From positions 8,039-72,038 of the forward strand of contig JBBDRZ010000006.1 of NCBI GenBank assembly GCA_040905185.1: 64,000 bases of DNA, written 5' to 3'. The DNA is from Chloroflexota bacterium. Lineage in GTDB: Bacteria > Chloroflexota > Limnocylindria > QHBO01. Positions within the stretch are counted from its first letter, which is position 1. Each line of letters starts with the position of its first letter. Positions 23,829-32,076 of this stretch are shown piece by piece. Below the pieces are notes generated by a model, which did no database searches, was not told the DNA's origin, and saw only the letters and a program-made list of their open reading frames with translations. Made by a program: the position numbers and the translations under genes.

Positions 23829-24664
23829 GCCGCCGCCCCCCGCCCCGGCTCGGCCCAGCCCTCGAGCTCGGGGGCGTGGACTGCGGCCAACGCATGGCGG
23901 ACCTGGGCCTCCACCGCGGCCATGCCCGGATCCCCGCTCAGCCCTGACGGCCTGGGGCGCGCGAGCGGAACCCGGATCTCGGCCGCGACCCGTCCCGGTC
24001 GTGGGGTCATGACCCAGATGCGGTCCGCCAGTCCGATAGCCTCGCCGACCGAGTGGGTGACCAGGACCACGGTCCGCCGCCGGGCCAGCCATAAGGCCTC
24101 CAGCTGAACGTCGAACGCGTCACGGGTCAGCGCATCCAGGGCGCTGAACGGCTCGTCCAGCAGCAGGACCGGCGGGTCGGTGACCAGCGATCGGGCAAGG
24201 GCGACCCGCTGCTGCATGCCTCCCGACAGCTCTCGTGGTCGCAGTGCGCCGATGCTGTCGTCGGCCAGGCCGACCTGGGCCAGCGCGCGTTCGGCGGCCT
24301 GATGCCGCCCGGCGCGCGGCGTCCCGCTCAATTCCAGGGGCAGCGCCACGTTGTCGAGCGCGGACCGCCAGCCCAGCAACCGCGGCTGCTGGAATACGAG
24401 GCCTGTGCGCCCATCGCCGGCTCGTGGAGGCGATCCATCAGGCCCCAGACCGATGCGCCCCGCGCTCGGTGCCAGCAGCCCGGCAATCGCCCGCAGGAGG
24501 GTGCTCTTCCCGCACCCGTTCGGACCGATGACCGCCACCAACTCACCGGAGGCGACCGATCCACTCAGGCCGTCGAGGGCGGTGAGCGCGCCTGACGGCG
24601 TGGAGAAGCGGATCGTCAGGTCCTCGATCGTGATCGCCGGCCCGGGTTGGCTCGCGTGCTCCAT
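23825..24664 (-). CDS. ABC transporter ATP-binding protein
   Basis: Walker A (GPNGCGKST), ABC signature (LSGGMQQRVALAR), Walker B (LLLDEPFSALD). Start trimmed to MEHASQPGPAITIEDLTIRF. Confidence 0.85.
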   Translation of the reverse strand: MEHASQPGPAITIEDLTIRFSTPSGALTALDGLSGSVASGELVAVIGPNGCGKSTLLRAIAGLLAPSAGRIGLGPDGSPPRAGDGRTGLVFQQPRLLGWRSALDNVALPLELSGTPRAGRHQAAERALAQVGLADDSIGALRPRELSGGMQQRVALARSLVTDPPVLLLDEPFSALDALTRDAFDVQLEALWLARRRTVVLVTHSVGEAIGLADRIWVMTPRPGRVAAEIRVPLARPRPSGLSGDPGMAAVEAQVRHALAAVHAPELEGWAEPGRGAAA

Positions 24665-25025
24665 CGGTCTCCCATGCGCCATCGCGCGACGGGGACGTGG
24701 CAGCCGCGACGCCTTCGATCGATGCGCGAAGCCCGCCCGGCGCACAGCGTCGATCGGTCCGCGGGTCGTCGGAGGAACGCCTCGTGCTCGCCCTCTCCCA
24801 TCCGGACTGTCACCGTCGGCCCTGTCTGCCCGGCGTGGCGCCGGGGTCAGGTCGGCCCCGCGAGGTGCCCCGGCAGCCTCTCCGCGGCCGCCGGCCTCAA
24901 GGGGTTCGCGGGCTGGTCCGTTGACCGGACCGACCGCCGGTGGGGGGTTTCACCCCGCCCCGAAGGCGATGGATTCGTTCAGTTGCCGCAATCCTGACAC
25001 TCCCCGCCCGCGACCGTCAAACCTC

Positions 25026-25865
25026 TCAGGAGACATCGGCTGCCAGGAAATCGCGCAGAACGCGCGCGAGCTCGGCTGGCTGGTCTTCGGGGATGAGCGT
25101 GTAGCTGTCAGCGATCTCCACCAACCGGCCGCGAGGAAGCAGGTCAGCCAGTCGTCGTCCGTGGTCCAGCGGCATGACGCGGTCCTCGACCGCCCACACA
25201 ACCAGGGCCGCATGCTCAAACGTGCGGAGCCCCTCGGCCGCTGCCAACATCTCCCCCTTTCGCGCGGCTCGCAGGTACTTGATCAGGTCGCGGCGGATCT
25301 CGCGCTGCGTGAGCAGCGGCCGCAGCCAGACGTCCATCACTTCATCAGGGACGGGTCGCTTGGACATCCAACCGAAGGCGAAGGGCAGCCTCCGCAGGGG
25401 GCGAAGCCGAAGCGGCTGCACCAGCATGTTGAGCCCGCCCGGCAACCTCGCCGCGAGCCAAACCGAGCGTCCGGGAAGGCCTGGTGGGAAGTTCTCGAAG
25501 GCCTCGCACGAGATGAGCACGAGTCGTCCGACCCGCTCCGCGCGTCCCTCGGCGATGACCAGTTGCGCTCCACCCCAGTCGTTGCCGACGAGGGTCACAT
25601 CGCGGAGGTCGAGGCTCTCGAGGAACTCCGCCACCAGCCGGGCCATCCCGCGTGGGGAGAGGTCAGCATCCGGGCTCATCGGGCGGCGATGCCCGCCCAG
25701 CGGCAAGGTGGGCACCACGCAGCGGTAGTCCGAACGGAGGTCAGCGACAACGTGACGCCACAGCGAGCCGTCCATGGCCGGTCCATGCAGGAAAACGACG
25801 ACCGGGCCGTCGCCTCCGGTGTCTTCGTACTCGACGATTCCGTCGGAGAGCTCGAGTTCTTTCAT
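25026..25865 (-). CDS. alpha/beta hydrolase
   Basis: Start trimmed to MKELELSDG. Contains HG (VVFLHGP) and a nucleophile elbow GNDWGG. Confidence 0.75.
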   Translation of the reverse strand: MKELELSDGIVEYEDTGGDGPVVVFLHGPAMDGSLWRHVVADLRSDYRCVVPTLPLGGHRRPMSPDADLSPRGMARLVAEFLESLDLRDVTLVGNDWGGAQLVIAEGRAERVGRLVLISCEAFENFPPGLPGRSVWLAARLPGGLNMLVQPLRLRPLRRLPFAFGWMSKRPVPDEVMDVWLRPLLTQREIRRDLIKYLRAARKGEMLAAAEGLRTFEHAALVVWAVEDRVMPLDHGRRLADLLPRGRLVEIADSYTLIPEDQPAELARVLRDFLAADVS

Positions 25866-26005
25866 GGTGCCCTGTCTGCATGCTGTGGACTGCCACGGCC
25901 GCGTTCGGGCGTGGCACACCCAGTTACCCTCACCGCGATTGTGAAGGACGCGCCGCCAAAGGCGATGGCCCTCCTCACCTGGTCGGTGTTGCCCACGATC
26001 ACGGG

Positions 26006-27025
26006 TTAGTTGCCGAGCGCTCGGGCGCCGACCACGACGAACTCGAGCCGGCACCACAACCCGCGGGCCCGAGATTGTGCCGGGATTTGGAGGATTGTTT
26101 CCACATCGTCCTTCGCGCAGATCTGCGCTGCCGGGTCATCGAACCGCCCGACGATTTCGATCCAGCGATCGCGTTCCGGCATGGTGATCCCAATAGCGGG
26201 ATCCACCTTGAACTCGAGACGGTTGCTGGACCCCCGGAAGGTCGACTCCGTGACGCGGACGTCGTAGTAGCCGTAACCGCAGATCAGCCAGGCGGGTTCG
26301 CGCGCGCAGTCGCCACTCGTTTCGATGTCGGCTGGGAGATCCGGGAACCAGCCCTGCAGGGTGAGAGCCTGTCCACCGAAGCAACCCAGTCGCATCCCCC
26401 ACGTCGACGCGAGATAGGTCACATCGGCCAATTCGAATGGCGGAGCCGGGCAGCGCGATATCGGAAGCAGCCAAGGGCCGCTTGTATCGGCTGCGGCGAT
26501 CCAGCCGATGACCTCGGGGTATGCGCTCCAACGGTTCGGATCGATACTCCTATCTGTCCCCATCAGATACCACCTGAACCCGTCGGCTTCGACGGGTCCA
26601 TCGAAGACGTATACGTCCTCCCATGGTGTCGCATGCCCTACGGCTACTGGCATTGGCCCGCCGTCAGCAACATCCATCGTTACCAACTCGGCCTGCAGCG
26701 TTGGGGCCACACGGACATCGACGCGGTCAGCAACCACGCGGGCGAACCATTCAGAGGGGGGTGCCGGCGCGATGCTTGGTGGGACGGGAGCCGATGGCGG
26801 AGGAGTCGAGTTGGAGGGTTTCGCGGAGGCGACCGGCATGTTGGACGGCGAGGCGGTGGACGAGGGCTCCGCGCTGACCTGGTCGCCCCGCCCACCCAGG
26901 CCGATCACCACTGCGACACCCAGCAGCGCGGCGGCACTCCCGGCGAGGACCGCCCCAATGATCTTGCCCCGGCGCGTTCCGAAGAGCCGCAGCGGAGTGG
27001 GACTCGGACTAGCCGGCGGGGACAA
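26006..27025 (-). CDS. membrane-anchored exported protein, paralogous to the extracytoplasmic part of the adjacent anti-sigma factor
   Basis: N-terminal TM and S/P-rich linker. Shares CFGxxxLTLxGW, EPAWLxC and V(T/V)G(R/H)(F/Y)DDPAAQxC blocks with the 27232..28440 protein. No domain I recognise. Confidence 0.5.
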   Translation of the reverse strand: MSPPASPSPTPLRLFGTRRGKIIGAVLAGSAAALLGVAVVIGLGGRGDQVSAEPSSTASPSNMPVASAKPSNSTPPPSAPVPPSIAPAPPSEWFARVVADRVDVRVAPTLQAELVTMDVADGGPMPVAVGHATPWEDVYVFDGPVEADGFRWYLMGTDRSIDPNRWSAYPEVIGWIAAADTSGPWLLPISRCPAPPFELADVTYLASTWGMRLGCFGGQALTLQGWFPDLPADIETSGDCAREPAWLICGYGYYDVRVTESTFRGSSNRLEFKVDPAIGITMPERDRWIEIVGRFDDPAAQICAKDDVETILQIPAQSRARGLWCRLEFVVVGARALGN

Positions 27026-27231
27026 GCTTCACCTCTGTCACCGCGATGATCGACCGGCAGCTGAGCGCAACCGAGTCAGGATCGGGGGGAATCACGGCAA
27101 GAGTGAACGCTCGCATCAGTGGTTGGAGCTCGTAGCCGGCCAGACGTGCATGACCCAGTCGATGATGCTGGCGGACCAATCCCCCGCGCGACCTCGGAAC
27201 GACATATGTTCGTCCCGGACGCCCAGATTGC

Positions 27232-28440
27232 TCACGGTGTGAGCGGCTCGATGCTGGCAACGACGAATGTCGAGCGGCACCCTTCTATCCAGTCCACATC
27301 GGTCGGTGGAGGGACGTATGTCTCGTCAAATCGGCAAGTCTGAGCCGCGGGATCGTCGTAGTGCCCCGTGACTCGCACGTTCGTGTCAATGAGCTCGTCG
27401 GTCCCGATGCCGCTCGCTGGATCGACGGCCACCAGAAGCCAGGGGGAGAACTTGTTTCGGTCATGGATGGGTGCCAGCGCCACGGATGAATCGCAACCCA
27501 GCCAGGCGGGCTCAATGTCGACGCAGGGGCCGTCAATCGCGCCTGGACCGCCCATCAGAGTCGCGTCAACGGTCAGGGATTCATTGCCGTAGCAAGCGAC
27601 CGAATCGGATTGGAAGATGAGCGTCACGATGTCGACGGGCGGATTGACGCAATCGGACGATCGCAGATCCGGCCAGGGAGCGACGATGTCGCGGACGCTG
27701 GTCAACGCGAAAGTGCCGGCGCATTCGACCCGGAACGGATCCCCGGCTGGGCCGCAGTCGGCCGCCGCGGGGTCGTTGAAATGACCCGTCACCTCGACCC
27801 AGGTGTTCGTTCGGACCGCACCCTCGGTCGCGCCGTAATAGATGCGTCCGATCGGACCGGACGGGTCGGCGGCCACCCACAGTAGCTCGGAGGCGGGAGC
27901 ATAGGGCCCCGGCGGAAGAGCGCCGAAGGCAAGCGGCTGGCGTTCGAGGATGCACATCAGCCACGTCGGCCGATCTGAATAGGTGATGCAGTCATAACCC
28001 AGATTGCTTTCCCGGAACACCCACCCGAGAAGGGTCAGTTCATCGCTGCCAAAGCAGCCCGGTCGATCGGCTACCGGCACCGCGACCACTGATTCGAACG
28101 TGAACGGCGGCGTTGGACACGCGGCGATGGGCGGCGTCGGTACGGCGGTCGACGGCGGCGACGACGGCAGCGGGGACGGCGACTCGACGACGTTTGGAGC
28201 CAGGTGGACGATCTGCAGCCCGACGACGACGGCTCCGAGGATTACGGCCGCGACGGCCGACATCCGGAGGATCCGCCCCGTCCGCGTGCCACCGGCGAGA
28301 CGAGCGAGCCATCCCCGTCGTTGCGGCTGCTGCGACGTGCGTTGGAGGGCGCTGTCGAGTACCCGATCGGGTGCCTCGCTCGGCGCCTCGCCCCGCAGCC
28401 AGGCGGTCAACTCCTGATCGAAGTCGTCCATGCGAGTCAT
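27232..28440 (-). CDS. putative anti-sigma factor (single-pass, non-ZAS) with a duplicated Cys-containing extracytoplasmic domain
   Basis: Its start overlaps the ECF sigma gene stop (ATGA). A cytoplasmic N-terminus is followed by one TM helix and a P/S linker, then two copies of a ~130-aa module each ending in ..VTGH(F/Y)(N/D)DPAA(A/Q)(D/T)C. Confidence 0.5.
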   Translation of the reverse strand: MTRMDDFDQELTAWLRGEAPSEAPDRVLDSALQRTSQQPQRRGWLARLAGGTRTGRILRMSAVAAVILGAVVVGLQIVHLAPNVVESPSPLPSSPPSTAVPTPPIAACPTPPFTFESVVAVPVADRPGCFGSDELTLLGWVFRESNLGYDCITYSDRPTWLMCILERQPLAFGALPPGPYAPASELLWVAADPSGPIGRIYYGATEGAVRTNTWVEVTGHFNDPAAADCGPAGDPFRVECAGTFALTSVRDIVAPWPDLRSSDCVNPPVDIVTLIFQSDSVACYGNESLTVDATLMGGPGAIDGPCVDIEPAWLGCDSSVALAPIHDRNKFSPWLLVAVDPASGIGTDELIDTNVRVTGHYDDPAAQTCRFDETYVPPPTDVDWIEGCRSTFVVASIEPLTP

Positions 28441-29000
28441 GCCGGGCCGCCTCCGCCGGTGCCGGTTTCGCGGGCATCGGCTTCCAGCGCCGCGCGGAGG
28501 GCGCGGGTGGCGTGGTGGAGGCGAGACTTGACGGTTCCGAGGGGAACCCCGGTCGCATCGGCCACCTCGGGCTGGGACAGGCCGTGGAAGTAGTGGAGGA
28601 CGACGACGGTGCGATGGTCGGCCGAAAGCCGACGGAAGGCGCGTTCCAGCGCCTCGCGGTTCGCCATCGCGGTGCTCGAGTCACCGATTGACGGCTGGTG
28701 CGCGGGGAGCAGGGTGACCTCGGCCCGGCGTCGACGCTGGCGTCGGCCCTCGTCACGGCAGGCGTGTACCAGCAGCCGACGCAGCCAGGCGTCGAACCGA
28801 TCCGGATCGCGGAGTGAAGGCAGGTCACGCCAAGCTCGGACGATGGTCTCCTGAGTCGCATCCTCGGCCTGGTTGTGGTCCCGCAGAATGAGGACTGCCG
28901 TCGCGTACAGCCGATCTACGACGCTGCCGGCCAGCGCGGAGAACGCCTCGTGGTCGCCCGACTTCGCTAACACAACCAACTCGCGCTGCACCCAACTCAT
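28437..29000 (-). CDS. ECF RNA polymerase sigma factor (sigma-70 group 4)
   Basis: Region 2 (RLYATAVLILRDHNQAEDATQETIVRAWRDLPSL) and region 4 (LHYFHGLSQPEVADATGVPLGTVKSRLHHA). Confidence 0.9.
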   Translation of the reverse strand: MSWVQRELVVLAKSGDHEAFSALAGSVVDRLYATAVLILRDHNQAEDATQETIVRAWRDLPSLRDPDRFDAWLRRLLVHACRDEGRRQRRRRAEVTLLPAHQPSIGDSSTAMANREALERAFRRLSADHRTVVVLHYFHGLSQPEVADATGVPLGTVKSRLHHATRALRAALEADARETGTGGGGPA

Positions 29001-29067
29001 CCCTTCCGCCGGCTCGTTGGCCGGCGCTCACAGACAATGGCGATCGCGCGAAGCGGTTGGTTCAACC

Positions 29068-29757
29068 TCAGCCCACGGCGTCAGCCACATCCGGTGGACT
29101 GGGGCCGCCGCGCCCGCGGGCCCAGCGGACAAGGATGAAGGCCACGCCTACGACGACCACGACGTAGATCAGGATCTCGAACGGTCGGATGGCCTCGTAC
29201 AGGGCCTCGTAGTTCTCGCCCAACACCCATCCCGCGGTGACGAGCGCCAGGTTCCACGGGATGGAGCCCATAATCGAGAACAGAAGGAATCGCCCGATGG
29301 GCATGCGGGCCACCCCTGCGGGGTAGTTGATCAGCGCTCGCAGGAGCGGGACGAAGCGGGCCAGGAAAACGGCCCAGCCGCCGTAGCGGGCGAACCAGGC
29401 ATCGGCGCGGTCCAGGTCGTCGGGGTGGATGTGGACGTAGCGTCCGTATCGGTCCAGGAGTGGTCTGCCACCCCAGGCTCCGATCAGGTACCCCGCCAAT
29501 GAGCCGGCGGCCGCCCCGATCGTGGCGGCGAGCATGACGCCGATGAAGGTCCAGGGTTGCGCGGTCAGCCATTCGACGACGGCGGGATCAGCTCCGGACT
29601 GGGCGACCTTCCAGCCCGCCATGGGGACGATGACCTCCGACGGGAGGATAGGGACGAACGTCTCGAGCCCGACGCCCACCGCCACGCCCACGTATCCGAT
29701 GGCGTCGTAGAGGGCCAGGAAGAACGGGATGACCTGCTGGTCGATGAACTCCAGCAC
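29068..29757 (-). CDS. DedA family (SNARE-associated/TVP38) membrane protein
   Basis: ARFVPLLRALINYPAGVARMPIGRFLLFSIMGSIPWN is the DedA core motif. Confidence 0.85.
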   Translation of the reverse strand: MLEFIDQQVIPFFLALYDAIGYVGVAVGVGLETFVPILPSEVIVPMAGWKVAQSGADPAVVEWLTAQPWTFIGVMLAATIGAAAGSLAGYLIGAWGGRPLLDRYGRYVHIHPDDLDRADAWFARYGGWAVFLARFVPLLRALINYPAGVARMPIGRFLLFSIMGSIPWNLALVTAGWVLGENYEALYEAIRPFEILIYVVVVVGVAFILVRWARGRGGPSPPDVADAVG

Positions 29758-29766
29758 GCCGATCCG

Positions 29767-30453
29767 CTAGGCCCCGGCTACCAGGCGCTCCCGCAGGGCG
29801 GCGTTCATCCGCTCGTCGACCCCCAGGATGTGGACGGCCACCAGCACCGACAGGAGCGCTGCGCCCGCGATCCAGCCGCCCAGCACGTCAAGGGGGTAAT
29901 GGAGATTGAGGTAGATCCGGACCAGCCCGATGGCCACGATCAGCACCAGCGCCACGCCGTAGGCGATCAGACCCTGCCGTCGATCCGCGGACAGGCGAGC
30001 GATACAGAACGCGACCAGCCCGTAGAAGACGGTGGCCCGGAGGGCGTGGCCGGCGGGGAAGACCGCGATGTCGTCCAGCCCCACCCCGTTGACGTTGAAC
30101 ATGCCCGCCACCAGCTCGGGCAGAGTGATCGGCGGGATGGCCACGAAAAACTTGAGCGCCCATTCCATCGGGAACGCCAGCGTGCCGAAGGCGAGCAGAA
30201 ATGCGAGGTCCGGTCGACCCTTGGCGAGGGCGACGATGCCGCATAAGGCGAACCCAAGTCCCACGAACCAACCTGAACCCAGGCCACTGATCGCGGTCAG
30301 CGCCGCGTTCACCACCGCCAGGTTGGCTTCCATCCAGGCCTGGAGCGGCACCACGACGTTCTGCATCAGCCACTCCTCGGGCAAGAGGTAGGTGGTCGTT
30401 CGCTTGAGGGCCACCAGCCAGAAGAGCGTGGGGAGGAGGATCAGGGACAGCAT
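29767..30453 (-). CDS. PAP2 family phosphatase (phosphatidic acid phosphatase type 2)
   Basis: KGRPD, FPAGHA (PSGH) and RIYLNLHYPLD (SRx5Hx3D) motifs. Start trimmed to MLSLILLP. The 542-aa ORF-track model 29767..31395 is antisense to hutH over its upstream part and was rejected. Confidence 0.75.
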   Translation of the reverse strand: MLSLILLPTLFWLVALKRTTTYLLPEEWLMQNVVVPLQAWMEANLAVVNAALTAISGLGSGWFVGLGFALCGIVALAKGRPDLAFLLAFGTLAFPMEWALKFFVAIPPITLPELVAGMFNVNGVGLDDIAVFPAGHALRATVFYGLVAFCIARLSADRRQGLIAYGVALVLIVAIGLVRIYLNLHYPLDVLGGWIAGAALLSVLVAVHILGVDERMNAALRERLVAGA

Positions 30454-30558
30454 GAACGCGGCGGCCGGGCTCGGCACAGCACCGCCCAGCCAGTCCCGCG
30501 CGTCGGGGCTCGTGACCAGGCGGCTGGTCGGGTCCGGGATCCTCCGCACGTCCGTAGT

Positions 30559-32076
30559 ATGGGACCCGTGCAAGCCCCGCTCCAGCTGACCGGAGGTGAC
30601 CTGAGCGTCGAGGTCGTGGTCGCCGTCGCTCGCGGCATGCGGCCGGTGGAGGTGGATGGGACGGCTCGGGAACGCATGGCGGCTTCGCGGTCGGTAATCG
30701 ATCGGGTGGTCGCGTCGGGCGAGACGGTGTACGGCGTCACGACCGGATTCGGGGACCTGGCCGACGTCCGGATCTCGCCCGAGCAGACCGCCACGCTCCA
30801 GCGCAACCTGGTCCGCAGCCACGCGGCCGGTGTGGGTGAGCCGCTCCCCGAGGAAGTGGTGCGCGCCATGCTCGTGCTGCGGGTCAACGCCCTGGCCGTC
30901 GGGCTGTCCGGCGTGCGGCCCGAGCTGGCAGACCTGCTGGTCGCCATGCTCAACGCCGGCGTCCATCCCCACATCCCGTCCCGGGGCAGCGTGGGCGCCT
31001 CGGGCGACCTGGCTCCACTCGCCCACCTCGCCCTGGTGGTCATTGGCGAAGGCGAAGCAGTGGTTGGCGGCAGGCGACTTGCCGGTGCCGAAGCCCTGGC
31101 CGCAGCCGGTCTGGAGCCGATGGAGCTGGAGGCCAAGGAGGGCCTCGCGCTCCTGAACGGGACGCAGCTCATGGCCGCCCTGGGCGCCCTGGCGGCAGCG
31201 GACGCGCGGCGGCTGGTCATCACCGCCGACGTGGTGGGAGCCATGAGCCTGGAGGCCATGCTGGGGACGGCATCGGCCTTCGACGAGGCCCTCATCGGTG
31301 CCCGCCCCCACCCGGGGCAGGTCGCATCGGCGGCTCGTCTGAGGGGGTTGTTGGCGGATAGCGAGATCGGGGCCAGCCATCGGTCCAGCCCGCACCGCCT
31401 CCAGGACCCCTATTCACTGCGCTGCATGCCCCAGGTCCACGGCGCGGTGCACGACGCGTTGGTGCCGCTGGAGGGCGTCCTGGCGGTGGAAATGAACGCC
31501 GCCACCGACAATCCGCTGGTCTTCCCCGACGGGCGGGTGATCAGCGGGGGAAACTTCCACGGCGAACCGCTGGCGCTGGCCCTCGACCATGCCCGGGTGG
31601 CGCTGACCGCGCTGGCCACCATCTCCGAGCGGCGGACTGCGCGCCTGGTGGACGCGCGGCTGTCGGGACTACCCGCCTTCCTGGCCGTCGAGCCGGGCCT
31701 GGAGAGCGGGTTGATGATCGCCCAGTACACCGCGGCTGCCCTGGTCAACGAGCTGAAGACGGTGGCGCATCCGGCGAGCGTGGACACCATCCCGACCAGC
31801 GCCAACCAGGAGGACCACGTCAGCATGGGCGCCACGTCCGCCCTGCTGTTGCGGGAGGCCGTGGACCGGGTGACGGCCGTTCTGGCGATCGAGGCCCTGT
31901 GTGCCGCGCGCGGTCTCGACCTGCGCGCCCCGTTGCGTCCCGGGCAGGGAGTGGCCGCGGCGCATGCCGTCGTCCGGGCCGCCGTCCCCCCGCTCACCGC
32001 GGACCGCCCGCCGGGACCGGACATCGCGGCACTGGCGCAGCTGATCAGCGACGGCGGTCTGGCGATCGATGCCTGA
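30559..32076 (+). CDS. hutH: histidine ammonia-lyase
   Basis: MIO-forming GSVGASGDL motif, with aromatic amino-acid lyase family conservation throughout. Confidence 0.95.
   Translation: MGPVQAPLQLTGGDLSVEVVVAVARGMRPVEVDGTARERMAASRSVIDRVVASGETVYGVTTGFGDLADVRISPEQTATLQRNLVRSHAAGVGEPLPEEVVRAMLVLRVNALAVGLSGVRPELADLLVAMLNAGVHPHIPSRGSVGASGDLAPLAHLALVVIGEGEAVVGGRRLAGAEALAAAGLEPMELEAKEGLALLNGTQLMAALGALAAADARRLVITADVVGAMSLEAMLGTASAFDEALIGARPHPGQVASAARLRGLLADSEIGASHRSSPHRLQDPYSLRCMPQVHGAVHDALVPLEGVLAVEMNAATDNPLVFPDGRVISGGNFHGEPLALALDHARVALTALATISERRTARLVDARLSGLPAFLAVEPGLESGLMIAQYTAAALVNELKTVAHPASVDTIPTSANQEDHVSMGATSALLLREAVDRVTAVLAIEALCAARGLDLRAPLRPGQGVAAAHAVVRAAVPPLTADRPPGPDIAALAQLISDGGLAIDA

Follow-up and report, generated by a model that had tools for sequence, protein, structure and literature searches.

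The locus described here lies within a 64-kb window (the whole stretch of DNA analysed, 64,000 nucleotides (nt) of contig JBBDRZ010000006.1) from a Chloroflexota bacterium of the class Limnocylindria, and consists of three genes on the reverse strand. These encode a sigma factor of the extracytoplasmic function (ECF) type with 187 amino acids (aa; 28437..29000(-)), a putative anti-sigma factor of 402 aa, here called A (27232..28440(-)), and a protein of 339 aa, here called B (26006..27025(-)). Outside the membrane, A carries two copies and B one copy of a cysteine-containing module, and it is this module, its family and its likely place in ECF signalling that are the subject of this analysis. 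All three open reading frames (ORFs) were confirmed at the positions first given. The original prediction, made from the letters of the window, had placed an ECF sigma gene at 28437..29000, coupled through ATGA to the gene of a single-pass membrane protein, and this proved correct by the Pfam and NCBIfam matches of the sigma factor, the gene overlap and the hydropathy of A. In Pfam, the sigma factor matched Sigma70_r2 (aa 27-91), Sigma70_r4_2 (aa 115-168) and Sigma70_ECF (E 3e-7), while the sigma70-ECF superfamily model of NCBIfam scored 82 bits (cut-off 42.9) and many other ECF models also matched. As in group IV sigma factors, the regions that Pfam found are sigma2 and sigma4 alone, without a fused regulatory domain. 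The orthologs of the sigma factor in other loci share 75-95% identity with it, and the 64-kb window holds no second ECF sigma and no further copy of the module. The sigma factor may start at GTG 28991 in place of ATG 29000: its orthologs start MVQRELV, which aligns with residue 4, and the Shine-Dalgarno sequence GGAAGGG (29001..29007) abuts the ATG. A sub-threshold Rfam match to CRISPR-DR20 within the sigma gene was dismissed as chance.

An ECF-type promoter had been sought both upstream of 29000 and in the gap at 27026..27231. The first region holds a conserved ECF-type motif, GAACC-N16-CGCCATTG (29035..29063(-)), which lies about 35 nt before the sigma start codon and is the sole exact match in the window; in the gap, no ECF motif, sigma-70-like promoter or terminator was recognisable. 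The bipartite motif is kept 5' of the sigma gene in the ten loci compared, and stands 30-45 nt upstream of every ortholog of the window's sigma factor. A slightly relaxed pattern gave 13 matches in the 1.6 Mb of sequence examined, all 13 of them upstream of sigma orthologs or of a truncated sigma copy (L001, L002). The 'AAC' -35 element and the spacing of 16-17 nt are in line with ECF promoters generally. This suggests autoregulation, and the motif is probably the sigma factor's own promoter. Before B and elsewhere in the window, only matches with 2-3 mismatches were found, and these at chance frequency (35, with 27 +/- 5 expected); with no comparable site before B or any other gene of the window, no regulon can be proposed. 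A scan of 25-30 kb for sigma-70 promoters and terminators likewise gave nothing above chance. Between the promoter and the Shine-Dalgarno sequence, a GC-rich hairpin can be read from the sequence (GCCGGC-CAACGA-GCCGGC, 29008..29025(-)), and L001, L006, L008 and L017 have comparable hairpins in the corresponding position. The RNAalifold consensus for covariation in this 5' untranslated hairpin was weak and not convincing, and we therefore make no claim for it. In L001 (5651..5892) and L002 (1964..2205), the ECF promoter occurs a second time, followed by the truncated sigma, a fragment of 75 aa; the two stand upstream of a gene of 347 aa that matches nothing in Pfam, shortly before the intact sigma/anti-sigma pair.

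The stop codon of the sigma gene (TGA, 28437-28439) shares its ATGA with the ATG of A at 28440, and all five of the orthologous loci retrieved keep this overlap of 4 nt, which is present here and in L001, L084, L086 and L088. The start annotated by NCBI for P0001, which is identical to A, is three codons later than the overlapping ATG. Homologues of A begin M-x-R-x-DDFD, and the overlapping ATG is therefore favoured. A then comprises a cytoplasmic N-terminal domain (aa 1-54, 28279..28440(-)), which is presumed to be the sigma-binding part, a single transmembrane (TM) segment (28204..28278(-)) placed by hydropathy at about aa 55-79, with the hydrophobic segment at aa 55-73, and the two outer modules. 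The N-terminus of some 55 aa bears the motif DDFxxxLxxWLRxxAPxxAPDRVL...QRRGW, which is kept in 63 proteins of the family while their outer domains are freely swapped. A word-indexed search with A returned 77 homologues, all annotated as hypothetical and all from Chloroflexota/Candidatus Limnocylindria metagenome-assembled genomes (MAGs) and metagenomes; one, labelled Chloroflexota bacterium, is 100% identical. A itself had no match in Pfam, zf-HC2 included, and lacks the HxxxCxxC motif; its relatives match CU044_5270_fam, weakly. The outer module also occurs behind N-termini of the zinc-binding anti-sigma (ZAS) type, with HxxxCxxC or a weak zf-HC2 match, in P0071, P0077, P0085, P0100 and P0154.

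The first reading of this locus presumed that A is the anti-sigma of the coupled ECF sigma factor. Context and architecture support that assignment, because the gene overlap is conserved, the cytoplasmic N-terminus and the one TM segment are conserved while the outer parts are swapped, and relatives carry the same module on ZAS-type N-termini. The N-terminus of A would then be the part that binds sigma. Since this N-terminus has no significant match to curated anti-sigma domains, it could alternatively be proposed that A is no anti-sigma at all, and that A and B are surface proteins co-transcribed with, or regulated by, a sigma factor which is controlled otherwise. We give this proposal very little credence: the 4-nt overlap is found in every orthologous locus, the cytoplasmic part is constant while the outer parts change, the same outer module has been independently recruited behind ZAS-type N-termini, and the sigma factor has its two core regions only, with no fused regulatory domain.

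The module had been described as present in two copies in A, about 130 aa long and with shared sequence blocks, and in a third copy in the gene at 26006..27025. A hidden Markov model (HMM) of the family, built from the three copies and iterated on homologues, hit A at aa 96-254 and 252-402 and B at aa 181-339 (E 1e-34 to 1e-53). The copies are A1 (aa 108-250, 27691..28119(-); HMM E 1.5e-34, BLASTP 1.6e-12 to B and 6e-8 to A2), A2 (aa 252-402, 27235..27687(-)), which was the copy modelled, and that of B (aa 181-339, 26009..26485(-)). The two copies in A and the third in B thus stand, but the size is nearer 150 aa than 130. In pairwise BLASTP comparison the three are 28-31% identical (E 6e-8 to 1e-12), and each has six cysteines, aligned at positions 108, 129, 151, 163, 229 and 240 in A1, 264, 283, 306, 316, 369 and 388 in A2, and 192, 215, 240, 249, 303 and 325 in B. 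The conserved blocks are real, but they are not identical across the copies: the first reads CFGSDELTLLGW, CYGNESLTVDAT and CFGGQALTLQGW, the second RPTWLMC, EPAWLGC and EPAWLIC, and the third VTGHFNDPAAADC, VTGHYDDPAAQTC and IVGRFDDPAAQIC. Across copies of only 28-30% identity, G-H-[FY]-[DN]-D-P-A-A, the W of EPAWL and the P of DP are conserved, and the signature of the family as a whole can be written TGH[FY]DDPAAxxC...CRxxFVV. It had been allowed that the shared blocks might be a low-complexity coincidence; the E-values and the size of the family (298 copies in 216 proteins, 2081 clusters) exclude chance and low complexity. A recent tandem duplication was also rejected, as the three copies are about equally diverged (~30% identity) and are therefore old subtypes.

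In a diverse alignment of 28 copies, H109 and D112 are nearly invariant, and the first, second, fifth and sixth cysteines (C1, C2, C5 and C6) are invariant; W62 and P113 also belong to the conserved residues. These four are present in 272 of the 298 module copies, and among those 272 the stretch from C2 to C5 contains no further cysteine in 44, two in 222 and four in 6; the count is never odd. Every copy is located after a TM segment, a signal peptide or a lipobox. This strictly paired gain and loss of cysteines, together with the extracytoplasmic location, supports the disulfide stabilisation that had been predicted from the conserved cysteines, with three structural disulfides probable in each six-cysteine module, for which pairs 1-2, 3-4 and 5-6 would be expected.

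At the level of sequence, the module remains as unrecognised as it had first seemed. Scans of A and B against Pfam and NCBIfam models and PDB sequences gave no match for it, the module region of 134 diverse members hit no Pfam family at E <= 0.01, and there was no significant profile match to curated sensor families (RskA, CHASE, FecR, PF/DUF models, BOF). Modelling of the structure predicted a closed five-stranded beta-barrel of the oligonucleotide/oligosaccharide-binding (OB) fold; Foldseek found no match in the PDB at E <= 1e-3. By its model, the module is thus predicted to be an OB-fold-like five-stranded barrel with no close solved relative, a likeness at the level of fold only, which is silent on the ligand. 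The predicted five-stranded barrel and the extracytoplasmic location are shared with envelope OB proteins such as YgiW/BOF, CusF/SilF, the B subunits of AB5 toxins and CcmE. The disulfide-rich, OB-like NTR/TIMP module, like the module described here, has six cysteines in some 140-150 residues. In contrast to all of these, the module has its own signature and no sequence similarity to any of them. The near-invariance of H109 and D112 and the invariance of four cysteines could suggest that the module senses metal through the conserved His and Asp, as might be thought from the OB-like periplasmic metal binders CusF, SilF and SilB, or redox state through reversible oxidation of its cysteines. However, metal proteins score no better against the model than dozens of unrelated OB folds, the cysteines are gained and lost in pairs, as structural disulfides would be and metal ligands would not, the module has no metal motif rich in Met/His, and the recurrent partner of the module is SH3b, a cell-wall-binding fold. 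A metal or redox sensor is on these grounds highly improbable.

A profile of the 28 diverse copies, searched against 1.84 billion cluster representatives, matched 2081 clusters at E <= 1e-3, of which 1389 reached E <= 1e-10, and these were almost all from Chloroflexota/Ca. Limnocylindria MAGs, which answers the question of how widely the module is spread. A scan of one genome per species gave 129 relatives, from which 80 loci were retained, again nearly all belonging to MAGs of Chloroflexota or Limnocylindria(les); the few bins labelled with other taxa are probably binning errors. Judged by these searches, the module appears to define a large, Limnocylindria-restricted and uncurated family. 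Literature searches found no description of it, and no mention of the family in papers on Limnocylindria. The idea that the module might always neighbour ECF sigma genes did not hold, as only 15 of 82 module genes (~18%) in the species-level genome sample directly follow one. Many members of the family are lipoproteins or anchored proteins, with TolB/PD40 propellers, Asp-box-like repeats and SH3b as partners, and the module is a general surface domain of the lineage that was recruited as an anti-sigma input. The TolB/PD40-type beta-propeller is, besides SH3b, the second recurrent partner: in P0020 and P0024 it forms the C-terminal end of an anti-sigma with the module, by fusion, and it is encoded just downstream instead in L001 (10497..11123) and L003 (2276..3535).

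The same breadth of use bears on a further explanation, in which the modules are passive structural parts (for instance stalks, wall anchors or surfaces for oligomerisation) that position or shield the anti-sigma, while the signal would be picked up by another component, be it a site-1 protease or B alone, with B perhaps an RseB-like protector of A. The module is indeed often found in lipoproteins and anchored proteins whose genes have no sigma close by, it is joined to many unrelated partners, from TolB/PD40 propellers and Asp-box-like repeats to SH3b, and its number and type vary freely among anti-sigmas whose sigma factors are 75-95% identical. However, the surface-type motif G-H-[FY]-[DN]-D-P-A-A, with W and P, is kept at 28-30% identity in a manner that resembles a binding site more than a spacer, and both modules of A are under purifying selection (dN/dS, the ratio of nonsynonymous to synonymous substitution rates, 0.14-0.22). 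We therefore regard a purely passive role as unlikely.

Protein B consists of a short N-terminus, one TM segment, a Pro/Ser linker, an SH3b-like domain (aa 91-180, 26486..26755(-)) and the module. Its start codon is TTG, with GAGGTG 4-5 nt upstream, and the one hydrophobic segment found by hydropathy is at aa 20-38. The ectodomain (aa 85-339) is a recurring unit of SH3b and module, of which jackhmmer recovered 80 full-length instances in 216 proteins. Its AlphaFold2 model (predicted local distance difference test 87.6, predicted template modelling score 0.83) has two domains, the first with a predicted SH3b fold, which is a peptidoglycan-binding one, and the C-terminal one being the OB-like module. 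SH3_3 was matched at E <= 0.01 by 13 of 134 relatives (best E 2.5e-12), whereas the SH3b domain of B on its own gave no match to SH3_3 at E <= 5, and close homologues scored 13-27 bits (cut-off 27). In relatives such as P0040, P0017, P0019 and P0078 the parts of A and B are fused in one protein: an anti-sigma N-terminus and a TM segment come first, then an A2-type module, and last SH3b with a B-type module. The C-terminal half of these proteins shares 43-45% identity with B, and the P0040 gene has a 4-nt overlap with an ECF sigma gene. In the closest orthologous locus, L084 (sigma 95%, A ~80% and B 74-76% identical), the B ortholog is an intact ORF of 345 codons whose ATG overlaps the anti-sigma stop as ATGA. 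The description of B as a free-standing paralog was thus right as to the third copy in the next gene, but B is a conserved unit of SH3b and module, which relatives carry fused to the anti-sigma. That A and B are fused in some genomes and translationally coupled in L084 speaks for a joint action of the two, most likely on the outer face of the membrane. Downstream of the anti-sigma ortholog P0003 lies a gene that is not B-like (L088, 2039..2617); it encodes a membrane-anchored protein with repeated 'VWTGxExxVWGG', which resembles Kelch-type propeller repeats.

We consider it rather probable that the three genes form a self-activating ECF sigma unit, in which A is the anti-sigma, with an OB-like outer sensor, and B is its partner. 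The ECF sigma factor would be kept inactive at the membrane by the ~55-aa cytoplasmic N-terminus of A, while the OB-like modules of A and the SH3b domain of B would bind a glycan or peptide ligand of the cell wall or another part of the envelope, or each other. Loss or gain of this contact would lay A open to inactivation, for which regulated proteolysis, known from other single-pass anti-sigmas, is the most probable route. The freed sigma would then use the GAACC-N16-CGCCATTG promoter to transcribe its own operon. Both the identity of the ligand and the proteolytic release of A are inferred; the SH3b partner makes cell-wall sensing by the module more plausible. Several points weigh against this scheme. 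A matched the NCBIfam 'antisigma' model NF052375 only weakly (E 0.017 and 15 bits, cut-off 100) and had no significant match to a curated anti-sigma domain, a profile search of the PDB with its N-terminus found no relative and no solved anti-sigma, and at ~55 aa this N-terminus is shorter than the classical four-helix class I domain. In the window, A and B are 206 bp apart, with no recognisable ECF promoter before B, so that their co-expression there is assumed, and B is presumably co-transcribed with A in this genome. This spacer (27026..27231(-)) is unique; by alignment it is not in L084, it has no repeat in the window or the loci, and so is not an obvious mobile element, and it has no Rfam match. 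Finally, 54 of 82 module genes in the species-level sample have no sigma within 5 kb, which implies that the module is not intrinsically a signalling domain. A broader proposal, which we advance only tentatively and hold to be possible more than likely, is that the Cys-OB module, usually with SH3b, is an undescribed device for recognition of cell wall or glycan, massively expanded in Limnocylindria and repeatedly recruited as an ECF input, with two or more unrelated kinds of anti-sigma N-terminus in front of it, so that A and B would be a split wall-reading sensor.

In its working, the system is a standard pair of ECF sigma and single-pass anti-sigma, and what is new is the outer domain and the SH3b partner, split or fused. 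As in RseA/sigmaE, RsiW/sigmaW, RsiV/sigmaV and RskA/SigK, sigma factor and membrane protein are a translationally coupled pair, the membrane protein has a single TM segment between a short N-terminus in the cytoplasm and a larger domain outside, and the promoter, here judged by its sequence pattern, is probably autoregulatory, with an 'AAC' -35 element. Unlike those anti-sigmas, A has a shorter cytoplasmic domain (~55 aa) with no detectable likeness to curated anti-sigma domains, and an outer part that is a tandem of predicted disulfide-braced OB-like domains. The module proteins P0071, P0085, P0100 and P0154 share the HxxxCxxC N-terminus of ZAS anti-sigmas (zf-HC2, PF13490), which A itself lacks. 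In matching SH3_3, relatives of B resemble the SH3b cell-wall binders of lysostaphin, phage endolysins and NlpC/P60 hydrolases, but unlike these they have no catalytic hydrolase domain; what comes after the SH3b is in every case the Cys-OB module. The sole link between OB folds and anti-sigmas that a literature search returned is RsgI, the anti-sigmaI, in which an OB-like barrel has been reported and the outer parts sense polysaccharides (PMC6582324). In RsgI, however, it is the cytoplasmic part, which binds sigma, that forms the simplified OB-like domain (PMC6582324), whereas the OB-like domains of A lie outside the membrane, and its sigma factor is of ECF type and not sigmaI.

Extracytoplasmic sensor domains set what ECF sigma systems answer to, and most have yet to be characterised. 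Uncharacterised sensor domains are common among anti-sigmas, and the general understanding of ECF signalling is unchanged by the module family. The family itself, with some 2000 clusters at 50% identity and no database entry, now has a predicted fold, a signature, a disulfide pattern and partner domains, and its definition would allow many 'hypothetical proteins' to be annotated in the genomes of Limnocylindria, a widespread class of uncultured soil and freshwater Chloroflexota. It also offers a concrete hypothesis, that of sensing of cell-wall contact through SH3b and OB domains, together with a predicted promoter that could be used for reporters.

Comparison of the window genes with L084 gave dN/dS values of 0.19 for sigma, 0.20 for the whole of A, 0.14 for A1, 0.22 for A2 and 0.46 for the whole of B. 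Purifying selection acts on all three, which are real genes, and evolution is fastest in B and the linkers. The dS values are uneven (sigma 0.18, anti-sigma 0.64, B 0.38), and such unevenness within an operon may reflect recombination or mosaic ancestry. An alpha/beta hydrolase gene (25026..25865(-)), 140 nt downstream of B, is syntenic in L084 and by tblastn 97% identical to its counterpart there, far more conserved than A (80%) or B (74%). Between 22000 and 33000, many long ORFs that overlap real genes on the opposite strand or in other frames, such as 24351..26009(+), 25652..27049(+) and the spurious 5' part of 29767..31395(-), are artefacts of a GC content of ~70%. Directly upstream of the sigma operon, on the same strand, lie genes for a DedA/VTT-domain membrane protein (29068..29757(-)), which is syntenic in the closest ortholog only, and a PAP2-superfamily phosphatase (~29767..30450(-)); both families are tied to lipid-carrier and envelope homeostasis.

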